Below are positions 14,307-20,918 of a stretch of DNA of 64,000 bases, piece by piece. Under the pieces are notes generated by a model that did not search any database, was not told where the DNA came from, and saw only the letters and a list, made by a program, of their open reading frames with translations. The position numbers were made by a program, and so were the translations under genes. This stretch comes from an uncultured bacterium. Lineage in GTDB: Bacteria > Fidelibacterota > Marinisomatia > Marinisomatales > JAHJCW01. The stretch spans positions 10,764 through 74,763 of the forward strand of contig CAZWKR010000009.1 of NCBI GenBank assembly GCA_964634215.1, in the 5' to 3' direction. Each line of letters begins with the position of its first letter. The stretch's first letter is position 1.

Positions 14307-15467
14307 CTAAATCAAATCTGCGAGACTTTTACTCAAATCAAATTTATATTTTTTGACGTCAATTTTGGGGTCATGCCATACACCATAATTGCCTGCCATG
14401 ATCAATTTTTGGATATATGATTTTGTTAGAGCTTCTGTACATTTATTATCGTACCAACGAATATCGATCTTTGAACTTGTTTCACTTATAGCGCCAAGCA
14501 TGGCGGATAAGAAAGTTTGACGATTCTCGGTATCGGTATTGATCTTGCAAAATCCAGCTTCGATCAATCCTTCAATCTGAGCCCAATCTGTTCCAACAAA
14601 ATCCAACCACTTCTGTTTGGAATTTGTTGGAACATTCATTTTATCTAATTGTTCAACAGCATATTTGACTACTTCGGGATAAAGTGTAGAAGCACCATGT
14701 GCTACAAATGTTATTTCAGGATTAATTCCATCAGCAACAGCAAGCAATTCATGTGCTAACTTAATATTTAATTTAACTTTCGAACCCGGTTTGCCTTTAT
14801 TTGGTCCATGCATAGTTCCAATTGTTGGCGCTAACATTAAAACACCGCTGTGTCTTAAAAATTGATCTAATTCATCTGGATTTGTATATGTTGAAAACTC
14901 AGATTTGGTGTCTTCATCTTCTTCGCCTGCTAAAACTCCTAATTCACCCTCCACCGAAAGTCCAAGTGGATGCGCCATATCGACAACTTCGCGAGTCAAG
15001 TCAGCATTATCCTGCAATGGCATTGCTCGCTTTTTTACCTTATCGGTAGAGTTGTCTGCCATGACACTTGTTAAATGCTGAACGGATGCTTGCACAACTC
15101 GCCGTCCTGCATCGGAGATGTAATCTCCGTGATCCAAATGGGTAGCAATTCTCACATTAGACCTAGCCGCTTTTTTAGCGATATAGTCAGAAGCAATTTC
15201 CAATCCATAAATAGCATCGCCCTCGCCAAAATGTTTTAGTGCCGAATTCGATACTGCTAAAAGTCCTGAGGATCCCAATAACTCAAATGCTTTGAACGCC
15301 GCATTTATTCCCTGAAAATGTGTAATGTTGAATGCTGGCACAGCATACCGCTTACCTTTTTGATTTCCCTTTTCTCCATTTTTCGCTTTTAAACACAATG
15401 CATGCGCAGTCATCATATTTGTTGGAAATCTTCTATCTGTATTTAATTTGGGGGGTAATTTTTTCAT
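14307..15467 (-). CDS. fba: Class II fructose-bisphosphate aldolase (long form)
   Basis: Class II motifs are present: VPAFN, THLDHG, SVMADNS, VEGELGVLAGEEDE, GTMHG, CKINTDTE. Confidence 0.75.
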   Translation of the reverse strand: MKKLPPKLNTDRRFPTNMMTAHALCLKAKNGEKGNQKGKRYAVPAFNITHFQGINAAFKAFELLGSSGLLAVSNSALKHFGEGDAIYGLEIASDYIAKKAARSNVRIATHLDHGDYISDAGRRVVQASVQHLTSVMADNSTDKVKKRAMPLQDNADLTREVVDMAHPLGLSVEGELGVLAGEEDEDTKSEFSTYTNPDELDQFLRHSGVLMLAPTIGTMHGPNKGKPGSKVKLNIKLAHELLAVADGINPEITFVAHGASTLYPEVVKYAVEQLDKMNVPTNSKQKWLDFVGTDWAQIEGLIEAGFCKINTDTENRQTFLSAMLGAISETSSKIDIRWYDNKCTEALTKSYIQKLIMAGNYGVWHDPKIDVKKYKFDLSKSLADLI

Positions 15468-15485
15468 GATATCTCCTTAATAAAT

Positions 15486-16676
15486 TTAAATTTGTCCAAT
15501 TGATTTCAATAATGTTTGAAACCATCCTTGTTTAATATCAAATTCTTTTCCACCTTTAATTCTTTGAAAATCGATGAGTTTTAACTCATCATTAGCTTCA
15601 TAATCCATTCCTACAACGCCGTTTTTACCGGCGATTGCACTTTCAGCCGCCAACATTGATGATCCCTTAATTAACGCTAAATCGCGATCATTTGGTGCAG
15701 CAGACCTTGCAAAATATCCACTTTTTTGTACCATAGTTCTGTCCGCTTCTAATTCTTTTGAAAACTGTTTCGCGAACCATTTCCCGGGATTAATTTTATC
15801 CAATTTCACGTGACCAAAAGCATCACGGGGGACTTCCTCTCCATTAGATTCCATTTCAGATACTATTTCATCTTTTCCTGCGCCCTCGCTTAGAAATATA
15901 TTTACGCAATCTTTTTTATCCATCAACTTTTTCAAACGCGCTATTTCCGATTTCATATCAATATTTAATTCGGGTACATATACTGCATCAATATCCCATC
16001 TGTCTTGTGATAGTTGAATTTCCGGTAAAAATGTTCGTTTATTTAAACGATGCCGATACGCAACTGCCGTCGCTGCAGTTAGCCACCCGCAATGGCGACC
16101 CATAACCTCATGAATAATTAATTGGCGAGTACTTGTTGTATTTTCATTAGCAATATTTTCAAAGAAAATGGCGCCCTGTTCGGCGGCTGTTAATGCTCCT
16201 AAGGTTTGAGTAATTGGTATAACATCATTATCAACGGTTTTGGGCATTCCTACAACAGTCAAATTGTAATTATTTTCTTTTAAATATTTAGCTAATTCCG
16301 CTGCCATGGTATTGGTATCATCACCACCGATTGTATGCAAAATGTCAACTTTATCCTTTACTAACTGATTGGCTGCAACTTCCAATGGATTTTCTCCTTC
16401 TTTAACATAACCATTCTTCACACAATCTTCAATATTAGTAAGTTTCACGCGACTATTACCAATCGGGCTACCGCCAAATTCATACAAGGTTTTTGCATTA
16501 CTTTTTACAGATTCAGGAATTGTAATGCTTTTCCCAAGTAGAAGACCACGGTAACCATTTAGATATCCTAGTAGCTCAGCATTTGGAGAAAGTTTATTAT
16601 ATTCCTCGATCAATGCTCCAATCGAAGCAGATAAGCAAGGTGCTATACCTCCGGCTGTTAAAAATGCTATTTTCAT
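15486..16676 (-). CDS. pfp: Pyrophosphate-dependent 6-phosphofructokinase
   Basis: PFK family. It has GGDDTN (Asp where ATP-PFK has GGDGS) and MPKTVDND (Lys where ATP-PFK has Gly). These are the two classical PPi-specificity residues. Confidence 0.8.
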   Translation of the reverse strand: MKIAFLTAGGIAPCLSASIGALIEEYNKLSPNAELLGYLNGYRGLLLGKSITIPESVKSNAKTLYEFGGSPIGNSRVKLTNIEDCVKNGYVKEGENPLEVAANQLVKDKVDILHTIGGDDTNTMAAELAKYLKENNYNLTVVGMPKTVDNDVIPITQTLGALTAAEQGAIFFENIANENTTSTRQLIIHEVMGRHCGWLTAATAVAYRHRLNKRTFLPEIQLSQDRWDIDAVYVPELNIDMKSEIARLKKLMDKKDCVNIFLSEGAGKDEIVSEMESNGEEVPRDAFGHVKLDKINPGKWFAKQFSKELEADRTMVQKSGYFARSAAPNDRDLALIKGSSMLAAESAIAGKNGVVGMDYEANDELKLIDFQRIKGGKEFDIKQGWFQTLLKSIGQI

Positions 16677-16743
16677 AATATTCTTATTCTTTTAATAAAT
16701 AAATTTTGTATGATAATCATATTTAGTTCTTGTATTTTTTTAT

Positions 16744-18708
16744 ATGGATAATCCGGCAAAAAAGATACTCTGGAAACCCGCAAAAAAACAAATCCAAGAT
16801 TCACAAATGACACGATTTGTAGATTTTGTGAACAATCATCACCAATTATCTTTGCAAAATTACAACGAATTACACAATTGGTCTGTAAATAATATAGCTG
16901 ATTTTTGGCAAACTTTTTGGGATTTTAGTATGATTATTCATACTGGTAAAATTAAATCAGTAGTTGATAATGATTCTAAAATGCCGGGAGCTAAATGGTT
17001 CTCAGGTATTAAATTTAATTTTGCAGAAAATCTCTTACATCATAGAGATGATAAAATTGCACTCATTTTTAAAGGTGAGGGCAGGAAATCGCAATCTCTC
17101 ACATATAAACAATTATATGAAAGAGTATCATTATTAGCTGGTGCCATGAGAGATGTGGGTGTCAATCCTGGAGATAGGATTGCTGGTTTTTTACCCAACA
17201 TGCCAATTGCAGTAATTGCGATGCTCGCTACAGCTTCAATCGGAGCAATTTGGAGTTCCTGTTCCCCTGATTTTGGTATCAAGGGAGTATTGGATAGATT
17301 CAAACAAATTGAACCTAAACTATTATTTACTGTTGATGGATATAATTATAATGGTAAAAAGTTTAATTATCTTGATAAAGTAAAACAAATTGCAGAAAAA
17401 TTACCATCATTAAAAAATATTATTGTAAATCCAAATATTTCTCATTCAGTTTATGTTGATGACATCCCAAAAGGAATCAGTTATAAAGAGTTCATCAATA
17501 AATCTACCAAACAAGAAATGGAATTTGAGCAATTACCATTTGATCATCCTGTATATATCATGTATTCCTCAGGTACAACAGGTAAGCCAAAGGCAATCGT
17601 TCATAGTGCAGGCGGTACATTAATTCAACATTTGAAGGAATTACGATTGCATACAAATTTAACTCGCGATGACAATATTTTCTATTTTACAACATGTGGA
17701 TGGATGATGTGGAATTGGTTAGTATCCTCTTTAGCTGTTGGATCAACTATAATTTTATATGATGGTTCACCATTCTATCCTGGTGGGAATGCATTATGGA
17801 AATTAACTGATGAACTTGGTATTACTATTTTTGGAACAAGTGCGAAATACATCGCCAGCTGTGAAGCTGCCGGAGTGAAACCTTCTGCTAATAATAAGTT
17901 ATCCAAATTAAGGACAATACTTTCGACTGGTTCACCGCTATCTCCCGAAAGTTTTGACTATATTTACAACGATGTTAAAAAGGATGTCACTCTTTCATCA
18001 ATAGCCGGAGGAACTGATATTATCTCTTGTTTCGTTCTTGGAAATCCCAATTTACCGGTACATCGCGGAGAGATACAGTGTAAAGGATTGGGAATGAATG
18101 TGCATTCATACTCTATTGATGGTAAACCACTTATTGATAAACAGGGCGAATTAGTTTGCACAAGTCCATTCCCTTCTGCGCCAATCTATTTTTGGAATGA
18201 TGAAAATGGTGAAAAATACAAAAAAGCATATTTTGAAGAATATCCCGGTATCTGGCATCATGGAGATTACATTTCTATCAGTGAACATAGCGGAGTAACA
18301 ATGCACGGTCGTAGTGATGCCACACTAAATCCAGGTGGAGTACGAATTGGCACCTCAGAAATTTACAGAGTAGTGGAAAACCTGCCTGAAATTGATGATA
18401 GTTTAGTAATTGGTCAAGAGTGGCAAGGGGATGAAAGAGTAATCTTATTCATCAAATTAAATGATGAATACAAACTTGATAATAATTTAATTGTAAAAAT
18501 CAATACCGCTATAAAATCAAATTGTTCACCCCGTCATGTCCCTGCAAAGATTTTAGAAACTCCTGATATTCCATATACAATCAATGGTAAAAAAGTGGAA
18601 ATTGCCGTTAAGAAGATTATTCATGGAAAAGAGGTGGGCAATAGAGATGCATTGGCAAACCCTGAGAGTTTGGATTATTATAAAGATTTAAAAGAATTAG
18701 AAAATTAA
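16744..18708 (+). CDS. Acetoacetyl-CoA synthetase (acetoacetate-CoA ligase)
   Basis: 654-aa AMP-forming acyl-CoA synthetase (YSSGTTGKPK). The N-terminal pattern LW.P......MTRF...Y..LH.WSV....FW matches acetoacetyl-CoA synthetases. Confidence 0.75.
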   Translation: MDNPAKKILWKPAKKQIQDSQMTRFVDFVNNHHQLSLQNYNELHNWSVNNIADFWQTFWDFSMIIHTGKIKSVVDNDSKMPGAKWFSGIKFNFAENLLHHRDDKIALIFKGEGRKSQSLTYKQLYERVSLLAGAMRDVGVNPGDRIAGFLPNMPIAVIAMLATASIGAIWSSCSPDFGIKGVLDRFKQIEPKLLFTVDGYNYNGKKFNYLDKVKQIAEKLPSLKNIIVNPNISHSVYVDDIPKGISYKEFINKSTKQEMEFEQLPFDHPVYIMYSSGTTGKPKAIVHSAGGTLIQHLKELRLHTNLTRDDNIFYFTTCGWMMWNWLVSSLAVGSTIILYDGSPFYPGGNALWKLTDELGITIFGTSAKYIASCEAAGVKPSANNKLSKLRTILSTGSPLSPESFDYIYNDVKKDVTLSSIAGGTDIISCFVLGNPNLPVHRGEIQCKGLGMNVHSYSIDGKPLIDKQGELVCTSPFPSAPIYFWNDENGEKYKKAYFEEYPGIWHHGDYISISEHSGVTMHGRSDATLNPGGVRIGTSEIYRVVENLPEIDDSLVIGQEWQGDERVILFIKLNDEYKLDNNLIVKINTAIKSNCSPRHVPAKILETPDIPYTINGKKVEIAVKKIIHGKEVGNRDALANPESLDYYKDLKELEN

Positions 18709-18739
18709 AAGGCCTTGCAGAGTAATCCTGCAAGGCCTT
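18709..18739. terminator. Bidirectional hairpin terminator between convergent genes
   Basis: Perfect 12-bp stem aaggccttgcag-agtaatc-ctgcaaggcctt, directly after the stop at 18708 and before the gap stop at 18780. Confidence 0.75.
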
Positions 18740-18779: not shown

Positions 18780-19781
18780 TTAATCCAATTCTCGTAGTAG
18801 ATCAATCAAATCAACAACGCGATTAGAATAACCCCATTCATTATCATACCAATTTAGTGTCTTTACAAAATTACCATCAATAACCCGAGTGAATGGTGCA
18901 TCATAAATTGATGAATGTGGGTTACCAATAATATCACTAGATACTACCGGTAAAGTGGAATATTCCAATACCTTCTTTAAACGTTTCGATGAAGCTGCTG
19001 CTTTTACTGCTCCGTGTATCTGATCGGGAGTCACATCATGTTTAAGTTGCGCTACTAAATCTACTACTGAGCCATCGGGAACCGGTACGCGCATTGCAAT
19101 ACCGTCTAGCTTGCCTTTTAGTTCGGGCAAGACAACTCCAACAGCTCGCGCTGCTCCGGTTGTCGTAGGTATCACATTTTCTGCAGCAGTACGACCACGA
19201 CGCCAATCACTATGTGGTACATCCGCAAGGCGTTGGTCATTTGTGTAAGCGTGGATCGTATTAATAACACCATATTCAATACCGAATGCATCATTTAAAA
19301 CTTTTGCCATTGGTGCTAAGCAATTTGTTGTACAACTTGCATTTGAGATAATGCGGTGTTCCTTATTCAATCCGTCGTCATTTACACCAATAACAACTGT
19401 ATAATCAATTTCATCTTTGGCTGGTACTGTTAAAATTACGCGCTTAGCACCGGCTTTTAAGTGTGCGGATAAAGTTTCCTTGGTACGAAAAATTCCGGTT
19501 GCTTCGATCACAATATCAATTCCGAGTTCCCCCCATGGAAGGTCTTCCGGATTTCTCTCTTCCAACATTTTTACTTTATTTTCACTTGTTTCAAGAACAT
19601 CGCCTTTCAATTCAACTTTATCAGGGAAACGTCCCATCACCGTATCATATTTCAATAAATATACTAATGAATCCGATGGTGAAATATCATTGATAGCTAC
19701 AATCTCAATATCATCTCGAGCATTCATAATACGAAATACTGATCGACCAATTCTTCCAAAACCATTAAGTGCAATTCTCAT
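18780..19781 (-). CDS. gap: Glyceraldehyde-3-phosphate dehydrogenase, type I (canonical)
   Basis: NGFGRIGR NAD motif, active site SNASCTTNCLAP, HAYT, TTGAARAV and RVPVPDGS are all present. Confidence 0.9.
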   Translation of the reverse strand: MRIALNGFGRIGRSVFRIMNARDDIEIVAINDISPSDSLVYLLKYDTVMGRFPDKVELKGDVLETSENKVKMLEERNPEDLPWGELGIDIVIEATGIFRTKETLSAHLKAGAKRVILTVPAKDEIDYTVVIGVNDDGLNKEHRIISNASCTTNCLAPMAKVLNDAFGIEYGVINTIHAYTNDQRLADVPHSDWRRGRTAAENVIPTTTGAARAVGVVLPELKGKLDGIAMRVPVPDGSVVDLVAQLKHDVTPDQIHGAVKAAASSKRLKKVLEYSTLPVVSSDIIGNPHSSIYDAPFTRVIDGNFVKTLNWYDNEWGYSNRVVDLIDLLRELD

Positions 19782-20797
19782 TATTTCACCTCCAATTTTG
19801 AATAGGCTTCAATTAGTTCGAGTATCCGTTTGGAAAAACTCCATCCATTATCATACCAACAGAGTGTTTTTAACAACTTTTCTTGAGTTATCATAGTTGC
19901 TTTTCCATCAAAAATCATTGTCTCACTTGTTCCTAATACATCAGATGAAACAATTGGATCATCGGTGTAACCGACGATTCCATTCAGCGAACCATCTGCA
20001 TATGATTTAATAGCTTCATTTAATTCCTTAACAGAAGGCATATTTTTTAATTCTGTTGATAGATCAACACAGGAGCCATCAGGAACCGGAACGTTAAGTG
20101 CCATACCGGCTAATTTACCTTTGAATTTCGGCATTAATTCGCCGACTAAGCGTGGCGATTCATTATCGTTAGGAATAATATTTTCCACTGCCGAGCGACT
20201 ACGTCGCAAATCAGAACGAACTGCATCAGCAAGCGGTTGATCAGAAGTATAAGCATGAATTGAGGTCATCATTGCTCTTTCAACACCGAATTTTTCATCG
20301 AGCATTTTGACCATTAATGCCAATACCTGCGTAGTTGATGACGTAACCGAAATCAGCTTATCGTCAGCATCAATTTCATCTTCATTGATTCCTGCAATGA
20401 CGATACGATCGCCTGCTTCTTCCGGTGGGACAGCAACGATTACACGTTTCGCTCCTTCATCAATATGTGCCTGCAAATCAGCACGATGATGATATTTGCC
20501 GGTTGCATCTATCACAAAATCAACATTATATGCATCCCAAGGAATACTTCCCGGTTTGCCACCTTCCAATAACCTGGTATTTTGATGACGCACCTTTAAA
20601 TAATTGCCATCAAGAACAACATTTTCTGTCATTGTACCATAAACGGAATCCCGCATTAGAAGATAATGCATTGCTTCCTGTTCACCCAAATCACTGATTG
20701 CCACAAAATCAAATAAAGGATTGTCATATCCTAATCGAAATAAATTCCGACCGATGCGACCAAAGCCCATTATACCAATTCTAATTTTCTTTTTCAT
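19781..20797 (-). CDS. GAPDH-like paralog lacking catalytic Cys (active-site-degenerate)
   Basis: The same fold and NAD motif (MGFGRIGR) are present. By manual alignment to the neighbouring gap, the active site reads SVTSSTTQVLAL (Cys to Ser, second Cys to Val), TTGAA is replaced by NDNES, and RVPV is replaced by NVPV. Its stop overlaps the gap start (TAATG). Confidence 0.8.
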   Translation of the reverse strand: MKKKIRIGIMGFGRIGRNLFRLGYDNPLFDFVAISDLGEQEAMHYLLMRDSVYGTMTENVVLDGNYLKVRHQNTRLLEGGKPGSIPWDAYNVDFVIDATGKYHHRADLQAHIDEGAKRVIVAVPPEEAGDRIVIAGINEDEIDADDKLISVTSSTTQVLALMVKMLDEKFGVERAMMTSIHAYTSDQPLADAVRSDLRRSRSAVENIIPNDNESPRLVGELMPKFKGKLAGMALNVPVPDGSCVDLSTELKNMPSVKELNEAIKSYADGSLNGIVGYTDDPIVSSDVLGTSETMIFDGKATMITQEKLLKTLCWYDNGWSFSKRILELIEAYSKLEVK

Positions 20798-20918
20798 ATT
20801 ATCTCCACCATTTATACATTAAAATTTAACTTATAAGTTACTTCTAAATTACTTCACTAAAAATTGAGATTTGATTGATGACAATGTATAGTATTATATT
20901 TTCTATACAATAGTGTTT

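Follow-up and report, generated by a model that had tools for sequence, protein, structure and literature searches.

In a 64,000-nucleotide stretch of DNA from an uncultured bacterium of the Marinimicrobia (GTDB phylum Fidelibacterota; contig CAZWKR010000009.1, positions 10,764 to 74,763; hereafter "the window"), two genes encoding paralogs of glyceraldehyde-3-phosphate dehydrogenase (GAPDH) lie in tandem, the stop codon of the upstream gene (gene A) overlapping the start codon of the downstream gene (gene B). Protein B is a canonical type I GAPDH. Protein A of this genome is predicted to be unable to form a thiohemiacetal and has lost both of its phosphate sites. Genes of the same kind as A, which we call the A family, are found in the roughly 90 loci that we examined altogether, from more than 10 phyla, each directly upstream of a canonical GAPDH. 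On balance, we favour a model in which A is a non-catalytic subunit, probably binding nicotinamide adenine dinucleotide (NAD(H)), of a mixed A-B oligomer (at its simplest, A2B2) in which B is the catalyst.

To describe the residues involved, we use the numbering of B. stearothermophilus GAPDH throughout, except where a residue is given its own number in protein A (Ser154, Asn235, Cys243 and Cys313). Proteins A and B are 40% identical in a BLASTP alignment that contains 1 gap. In this alignment, as in two others made independently (phmmer against B. stearothermophilus GAPDH structures, and a MAFFT alignment of 17 sequences), Ser154 of A takes the place of the catalytic Cys149, the active-site stretch reading SVTSSTTQVLAL in A and SNASCTTNCLAP in B, and Cys153 is replaced by valine. 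Because the three alignments agree, and because the only two cysteines of A, residues 243 and 313, lie away from the catalytic position, we reject the idea that a misalignment conceals a catalytic cysteine. The substrate-phosphate (Ps) site of A is likewise incomplete, Thr179 and Arg195 being kept and Arg231 having become asparagine (NVPV, with Asn235, in A versus RVPV in B). The same is true of the inorganic-phosphate (Pi) site, where Ser148 and Thr150 are kept but Thr208 is Asn and Gly209 is Glu, as part of an NDNES loop that replaces T206-T207-T208-G209-A210. Finally, Glu314 is changed to glycine (WYDNE to WYDNG), a change common to the whole A family. Beside these losses, A retains the GxGxxG motif, Asp32, Ser148, Thr150, His176, Thr179, Arg195 and Asn313. 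B is canonical throughout, with Cys149, His176, Thr179, Arg195, TTTGA, Arg231 and Glu314 all present.

These results bear out most of what an earlier note on this DNA had read from the letters: two GAPDH paralogs in tandem joined by overlapping stop and start codons (seen in the open reading frames and the TAATG), a downstream gene with every catalytic site of a canonical GAPDH, and an upstream gene that keeps the Rossmann motif and His176 while its nucleophilic Cys has become Ser, its second Cys Val and its phosphate-binding RVPV NVPV. The note had also set NDNES against TTGAA. The loop is indeed altered, but the register was one residue off, and NDNES aligns with TTTGA (206-210). The change of Glu314 did not figure in the note, which had conceded that a proper alignment might yet place a cysteine at the nucleophile position; all three place Ser154 there. 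As a separate observation, the two cysteines that A does possess are strongly conserved close to home, Cys243 in 114 and Cys313 in all of 120 Marinimicrobia homologs, whereas neither B nor most of the other A lineages have them. They are located on strands of the catalytic-domain sheet that may adjoin each other.

The unusual residues of A are not an artefact. Its 120 closest homologs, which are 65-93% identical to it and which, where they bear organism names, come from Marinimicrobia, Neomarinimicrobiota or Fidelibacterota, carry Ser at 149, Asn at 231 and Gly at 314 without exception. As these homologs derive from independent assemblies, the invariance of Ser154 and Asn235 excludes a sequencing error, which the earlier note had named as a way in which its claim might fail. 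In addition, the TCA codon of Ser154 differs from every Cys codon by two substitutions. The ratio of nonsynonymous to synonymous substitution rates (dN/dS) between the window and a related locus (L093) is 0.055 for A and 0.030 for B, and in five other close pairs the values for A range from 0.06 to 0.20, slightly above those for B. Purifying selection on A is thus strong whichever residue fills position 149, and the A reading frame is intact and full-length in all of the roughly 90 loci. Taken together, the codon, the homologs, the intact frames and the dN/dS value lead us to reject the view that gene A is decaying into a pseudogene or is an artefact of sequencing or assembly, in favour of which only the prior expectation that odd residues may be errors can be adduced; we give this explanation practically no weight and regard it as refuted.

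By fold and ancestry, A is a GAPDH. Both A and B match the Pfam domains Gp_dh_N and Gp_dh_C from end to end, the E-values for A being 2e-26 and 5e-48 over its full length. An AlphaFold2 model of A (predicted local distance difference test score, pLDDT, 88.9; confident save for S-loop residues 185-202) superposes on GAPDH structures with a template-modelling (TM) score of about 0.9. The best fold matches to this model in the PDB place an engineered C149A mutant first and a C149S mutant fourth, and the best sequence match to A in the PDB is the C149S form of B. stearothermophilus GAPDH (1NQ5). Nevertheless, A should not be filed as a type I GAPDH, because it fails on four features that define the type, namely Cys149, the two phosphate sites (Ps and Pi) and the hidden Markov model cut-off. 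Under the type I GAPDH equivalog model TIGR01534, with a cut-off of 367.2 bits, A scores 315.9 and B 425.8. Two models for Epd, the erythrose-4-phosphate dehydrogenase, give A 263 against a cut-off of 539 (NF010058) and 256 against 531 (TIGR01532), and the model for ArsJ-associated GAPDH gives 257 against 450 (NF033735), the neighbouring gene here being a canonical gap and not arsJ. A falls under the curated cut-off of all nine NCBIfam models that it matched, each describing a GAPDH or an erythrose-4-phosphate dehydrogenase, so that no curated family makes A a member of a known enzyme, and we reject its identification as Epd, as an ArsJ-associated GAPDH or as any other NCBIfam GAPDH on these scores. 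Scans of NCBIfam and Pfam brought to light no model dedicated to the A family. The source annotations consulted (NCBI, JGI) name proteins of this family 'type I glyceraldehyde-3-phosphate dehydrogenase' or 'GAPDH NAD-binding domain-containing protein'.

The last base of the gene A stop codon TAA (19783..19781) is the first base of the gene B ATG (19781..19779), and a Shine-Dalgarno sequence for gene B lies within the final codons of gene A. A terminator-like hairpin, which proper occupies 18739..18709, starts 40 nt past the stop codon of gene B and closes the two-gene unit; no terminator-like site was found between genes A and B. A scan of the 120-nt spacer upstream of gene A for sigma-70 promoters gave no convincing site. 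The overlap, the Shine-Dalgarno sequence within A and a terminator placed after B only argue that genes A and B, which are the sole GAPDH-like genes in the window, make up one bicistronic unit whose translation is predicted to be coupled.

The pairing is conserved far beyond the Marinimicrobia. Among loci from named genomes, all 80 have an A-type gene, with Asn (rarely Lys, Ser or Ala) at position 231, directly upstream of a fully canonical GAPDH gene that bears the signature CTCHRT[TS]TGARE, on the same strand. The order and strand are the same in 13 of 13 metagenome loci representing seven distinct A proteins. The tandem arrangement, which the earlier note had proposed to look for among orthologs, was therefore present in every locus examined. 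The loci come from Neomarinimicrobiota/Marinimicrobia, Thermoanaerobaculia/Holophagales/Acidobacteriota, Desulfobacterales, Candidatus Multivoradales, Bdellovibrionales, Krumholzibacteriia, Eisenbacteria, Acidimicrobiia/Actinomycetota, Lentisphaeria, Bacteroidales/Bacteroidota, Planctomycetota and Pseudomonadales/Halieaceae, and include two cultured carriers, Parahaliea aestuarii S2-26 (WP_148063465.1 and WP_148063464.1) and Mangrovimicrobium sediminis. We thus reject the notion of an oddity confined to Marinimicrobia. The manner in which the genes are joined is conserved as well: stop and start codons overlap at 71 of the 88 A/B junctions that were scored, by 4 nt (ATGA or GTGA) at 46 and by 1 nt (TAATG or TGATG) at 25, with a gap of 0-3 nt at a further 7, and a Shine-Dalgarno core lies within the 3' end of A in 74 of 85 related loci. 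Since the genes around the pair are wholly different between distant lineages, selection appears to act on the A-B pair itself. When a representative of the B clade was picked independently (P0127), it too had an A gene upstream. Of two sequences just outside that clade, one (P0198) has an unrelated gene upstream, and the other (P0207) has pgk downstream and sits on a contig that ends at the 5' end of the gene.

Two of these lineages deserve separate mention. At one locus, from a planctomycetotal metagenome-assembled genome (L080), the B partner reads C-A-G-H-R-T-T-T-A-A-R-E in place of the usual C-T-C-H-R-T-T-T-G-A-R-E, with Thr151 changed to Ala, Cys153 to Gly and Gly209 to Ala, and the accompanying A keeps Cys149; the division of labour between A and B may differ in this lineage. 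In the Halieaceae, Parahaliea aestuarii and Mangrovimicrobium sediminis carry an open reading frame of about 890 amino acids directly after the A-B pair (L072, 4012..6681; L074, 3945..6644), which we take, from its sequence alone, to be phosphoenolpyruvate carboxylase-like. If so, this suggests a central-carbon context for the Halieaceae pair unlike that in the window.

Turning to the evolution of the family, about 24 of the 150 best matches in an exhaustive search of 50%-identity cluster representatives lack Cys149, having S, A, N, V, G, P or R in its stead, and most of these have Asn231. In a neighbour-joining tree, which is crude, all full-length sequences without Arg231 (16 cluster representatives and the A proteins of the fetched loci) fall into one clade, the A family, and the canonical GAPDHs that partner A cluster apart from it, in what we call the B clade. 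Position 231 is Asn in 94% of 84 A-family sequences and Arg in 100% of the B partners; position 314 is Gly, Ser or Ala throughout the A family; and the 206-210 loop is variable in A but an invariant T-[TS]-T-G-A in the B partners. Cys149 is present in 100% of the B partners, and their signature is intact in essentially all loci. In contrast, position 149 in 218 A-family sequences is C in 117, S in 35, A in 23, V in 17, N in 15, I in 6, P in 3 and G in 2. The nucleophile position thus appears, in these alignments, to be free to vary in A only. We reject the proposition that the entire A family lacks the cysteine, which is present in 94 of the 120 best profile hits and in about 22 of 84 A sequences from fetched loci. 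Fitch parsimony on a rooted neighbour-joining tree of the A family gives Cys as the ancestral state, with at least 12 changes between Cys and other residues. In the subclade to which the window belongs (Marinimicrobia, Bacteroidota, Halieaceae and Lentisphaeria), Ser and Ala interchange at position 149 among close relatives, which speaks against a conserved role for the Ser hydroxyl.

The two proteins also differ in how they have diverged. A evolves about 1.5 times as fast as B (mean p-distance 0.53 versus 0.34) and is the more divergent of the two in 99% of locus pairs, and the distances of A and of B between genomes correlate (r = 0.82). Constraint has been lost in A, but kept in B, in the strand 146-156, in the nicotinamide-side residues 118-120 and 317, in the S-loop 180-190 (at its tip, 187-190), and in the phosphate loop with the helix that follows it (206-217). 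Conserved in A and B alike are the glycines of the dinucleotide fold, Asp32, Ser148, Thr150, His176, Thr179, Arg194 and Arg197. Some sequences of note lie at the edges of this picture. A cluster of 137 members (P0121, 420 aa; one example is GIR22739.1; contigs of up to 2 Mb) is 63% identical to the A of the window, and in its sublineage an N-terminal extension of about 83 amino acids has been called in many assemblies, being either genuine or a start codon that is consistently mis-called. Four representatives outside the A clade (P0211, P0197, P0257 and P0267) have Cys149 changed to Gly, Pro or Arg and keep Arg231; these may be independent degenerate copies or errors.

What, then, does A do? 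Genes for subunits that are needed in matched amounts are usually arranged with overlapping stop and start codons and an internal Shine-Dalgarno sequence, and the isologous interfaces of the GAPDH tetramer are of a kind that a paralog can share. We therefore propose a mixed A-B oligomer; the complex, its stoichiometry and the service that A renders to B are what we infer. One transcript would yield both proteins by coupled translation, and their mixed assembly, of A2B2 type, would leave the thiohemiacetal and phosphorolysis chemistry to the B subunits only. The part of A, structural or regulatory, would be to furnish interfaces of the tetramer and, probably, a site that binds NAD(H). Such a module could have arisen by a duplication after which early changes of Arg231 to Asn and of Glu314 to Gly crippled one copy; Cys149 would afterwards have been dispensable and lost many times, with the A copy staying indispensable for assembly or regulation. 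Three of the features that mark a prozyme-like partner are found in A, namely the loss of catalytic residues, purifying selection and conserved linkage to an active paralog, with which its gene arrangement predicts co-expression. The earlier note had proposed a regulatory or scaffolding pseudoenzyme that forms hetero-tetramers with Gap, and of the two functions that it offered, this one, a non-catalytic partner of the adjacent Gap, is favoured by the universal pairing, the overlaps and the unrelated residues at position 149, although the hetero-tetramer itself is conjectural.

Several observations weigh against this proposal. About half of the sampled A family keeps both Cys149 and His176, so that the family as a whole may not be inactive: some A proteins may retain chemistry, and the ancestral A may have had a distinct catalytic role. 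Among the Marinimicrobia homologs of A, S-S-T-T, His176, Thr179 and Arg195 are invariant, and the conservation of these remnants exceeds what a purely structural part would strictly need, which hints that the former active site may still bind a ligand. Co-transcription and coupled translation would also be expected of two separate enzymes of one pathway. Moreover, no natural A-B fusion was found among long representatives. One of them (P0125, 509 aa) joins the first 280 or so residues of an A-type unit to the last 225 or so of a second GAPDH unit, but it is probably a chimera of the tandem paralogs, due to recombination or mis-assembly, and not a true fusion; the others are single GAPDH units or multi-unit proteins.

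If A were instead an independent NAD(P)-dependent dehydrogenase, adjoining gap through a shared pathway, it might oxidise an aldehyde or alcohol that is phosphorylated differently or not at all, or, directly, a hydrated aldehyde with His176 as the base. The strong purifying selection on A would then be accounted for, as would the conservation of the Rossmann motif, Asp32, Asn313, His176, Ser148, Thr150 and Thr179 and the persistence of Cys149 in about half of the family; the altered Pi loop, too, resembles that of erythrose-4-phosphate dehydrogenase, a non-phosphorylating paralog (PMC12041015). We nonetheless consider such an enzyme unlikely. Position 149 is S, A, N, V, I, P or G depending on the lineage, with Ser and Ala toggling, and residues so unrelated mean that no single chemistry is conserved at the site. 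The residues of the nicotinamide and substrate pocket (118-120, 146-156, 180-183 and 317) are relaxed, A scores under the cut-off of every NCBIfam model that it matched, and a B-clade neighbour is present in all of the roughly 90 loci, mostly with an overlap, which is tighter than is usual for pathway clustering. The pairing, the overlap and the evidence at position 149 in the same way disfavour the other suggestion of the earlier note, a dehydrogenase for a non-phosphorylated substrate.

It is also conceivable, though we judge it quite improbable, that A is a non-enzymatic protein acting apart from B, such as an NAD(H)-sensing regulator or a moonlighter that binds nucleic acid or protein, and is co-expressed with B for convenience. 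Moonlighting is well known for GAPDHs, and A has retained the ADP-binding part of the Rossmann fold and lost its catalytic residues. However, a regulator is normally far scarcer than a glycolytic enzyme, and the overlap and internal Shine-Dalgarno sequence typify proteins made in matched amounts; the S-loop and the segments of the C-terminal-domain sheet, which build the tetramer, are among the better conserved parts of A; and a domain scan detected no DNA- or RNA-binding or additional domain in it. We attach very little probability to the idea that A is still a GAPDH subunit of weak activity, in which Ser154 would act as oxygen nucleophile by way of an acyl-ester intermediate, despite the fact that Ser is the closest analogue of Cys and that Ser149 and His176 are both invariant in the 120 Marinimicrobia homologs. 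Such a subunit would have to work with Arg231 and the Pi loop lost as well, Ala, Val, Asn, Ile or Pro fills the position in related lineages whose A genes are selected and arranged in the same way, and the C149S mutant of B. stearothermophilus GAPDH is reportedly less active by orders of magnitude.

The features discussed are collected in the table below. The open reading frame upstream of gene A is GTPase-like, and we assume from its sequence that it is TypA/BipA-like. The gap pair lies in a glycolysis neighbourhood (14307..18708) that is kept in other Marinimicrobia loci.

Table. Features of the A-B gene pair and of its neighbourhood, with positions in the window.
Feature	Position	Strand	Basis
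Gene A, 338-aa GAPDH-fold paralog, member of the A family	19781..20797	minus	
Gene B, 333-aa canonical type I GAPDH, member of the B clade	18780..19781	minus	
Shine-Dalgarno-like GGTGGAGA, 5-12 nt 5' of the gene A ATG	20802..20809	minus	read from sequence
TCA codon for Ser154, at the catalytic Cys149 position	20336..20338	minus	alignments; Ser in 120/120 closest homologs
NDNES loop replacing T206-T207-T208-G209-A210 of the inorganic-phosphate site	20156..20170	minus	alignments
AAC codon for Asn235, at the Arg231 position (substrate-phosphate site)	20093..20095	minus	family-defining substitution
Codons for Cys243 and Cys313 of protein A	20067..20069 and 19857..19859	minus	
GGAGG Shine-Dalgarno for gene B, within the final codons of gene A	19789..19793	minus	read from sequence
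TAATG stop/start overlap joining A and B (putative translational coupling)	19779..19783	minus	read from sequence
Intrinsic-terminator-like hairpin, 13-bp stem with 7 G-C pairs, then T-rich tail	18699..18739	minus	
AMP-forming acetoacetyl-CoA/acyl-CoA synthetase-like gene, convergent neighbour of the gap pair	16744..18708	plus	
Phosphofructokinase-family gene, beyond the synthetase-like gene	15486..16676	minus	
Class II aldolase-like gene, beyond the synthetase-like gene	14307..15467	minus	

Few enzymes have been studied as much as GAPDH, which is regarded as a homotetramer whose subunits are identical and all active. The GAPDH of the bacteria considered here probably has a dedicated non-catalytic partner subunit. 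Going further, we raise the possibility, which we hold to be somewhat short of even, that across much of the bacterial tree (including Marinimicrobia, Acidobacteriota, Bacteroidota, Planctomycetota, Actinomycetota, Desulfobacterales and Halieaceae) the catalytic subunit of the glycolytic GAPDH is joined, in an obligate hetero-oligomer, by an ancient dedicated paralog. After losing its nucleophile time and again, this paralog would now play a structural part or a regulatory one as a sensor of NAD(H) or of a metabolite. If true, this would reveal a hitherto unrecognised quaternary architecture and control point of a central enzyme, and a phylum-spanning module with a degenerate paralog would add a new type of subunit to central carbon metabolism. 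Because A is labelled a type I GAPDH, abundant uncultured groups such as SAR406/Marinimicrobia are credited in metabolic reconstructions with two active GAPDHs, the true number probably being one. The family furthermore offers a natural series for the study of the passage from enzyme to pseudoenzyme, with members that retain Cys alongside others with Ser, Ala, Asn, Val, Ile or Pro, and the cultured carriers Parahaliea aestuarii and Mangrovimicrobium sediminis put the idea within direct experimental reach.

The A family was previously unnamed, and the widespread two-gene GAPDH module to which it belongs is apparently undescribed: literature on GAPDH pseudoenzymes, Cys-less paralogs, heterotetramers, tandem gap genes, Marinimicrobia and C149S, of which our coverage was incomplete, yielded no description of it, and the accessible part of a review of the aldehyde-dehydrogenase superfamily (PMC12041015) makes no mention of it. 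Compared with type I GAPDH (GapA; TIGR01534, EC 1.2.1.12), A shares the two Pfam domains, the fold (TM 0.9) and about 40% identity with B, but it is without Cys149, Cys153, Arg231, Glu314 and the T208-G209 loop and belongs to a separate, faster-evolving clade. Epd (TIGR01532/NF010058) is, like A, a GAPDH paralog with a remodelled 206-210 loop; however, it is a stand-alone enzyme of pyridoxal synthesis and has both Cys149 and Arg231, which A lacks. The C149S and C149A forms of B. stearothermophilus GAPDH (1NQ5, 1NPT) show that a GAPDH without its cysteine still folds and binds NAD+. These are laboratory mutants whose other sites are intact, whereas A is a natural, conserved gene product that is also without Arg231, Glu314 and the phosphate loop.

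The nearest functional analogies to the A-B module are the plastid GapA/GapB enzyme and the prozymes. Prozyme-type partners, inactive paralogs that team up with an active counterpart and aid it, are known for the S-adenosylmethionine decarboxylase (AdoMetDC) and deoxyhypusine synthase of trypanosomatids. In Chlamydia, an impaired TrpA is reported to regulate TrpB (PMC8376405). As in the prozymes, A is a paralog of an active enzyme that has lost its catalytic residues, is under purifying selection and is genetically tied to its partner, but it belongs to another enzyme family, is bacterial and spans phyla rather than a single lineage. The chloroplast A2B2 GAPDH (PMC11025378, PMC3134340), for its part, unites two paralogs in one oligomer, one of them with a non-catalytic role, as is proposed here on the basis of the genes. 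In plants, both subunits are catalytic, and the regulatory role of GapB stems from a CP12-like C-terminal extension with a pair of cysteines. In contrast, A is without such an extension, being about 5 aa longer than B at its C-terminus, and without the catalytic residues, and the genes for A and B in the window form an overlapping bicistronic unit.

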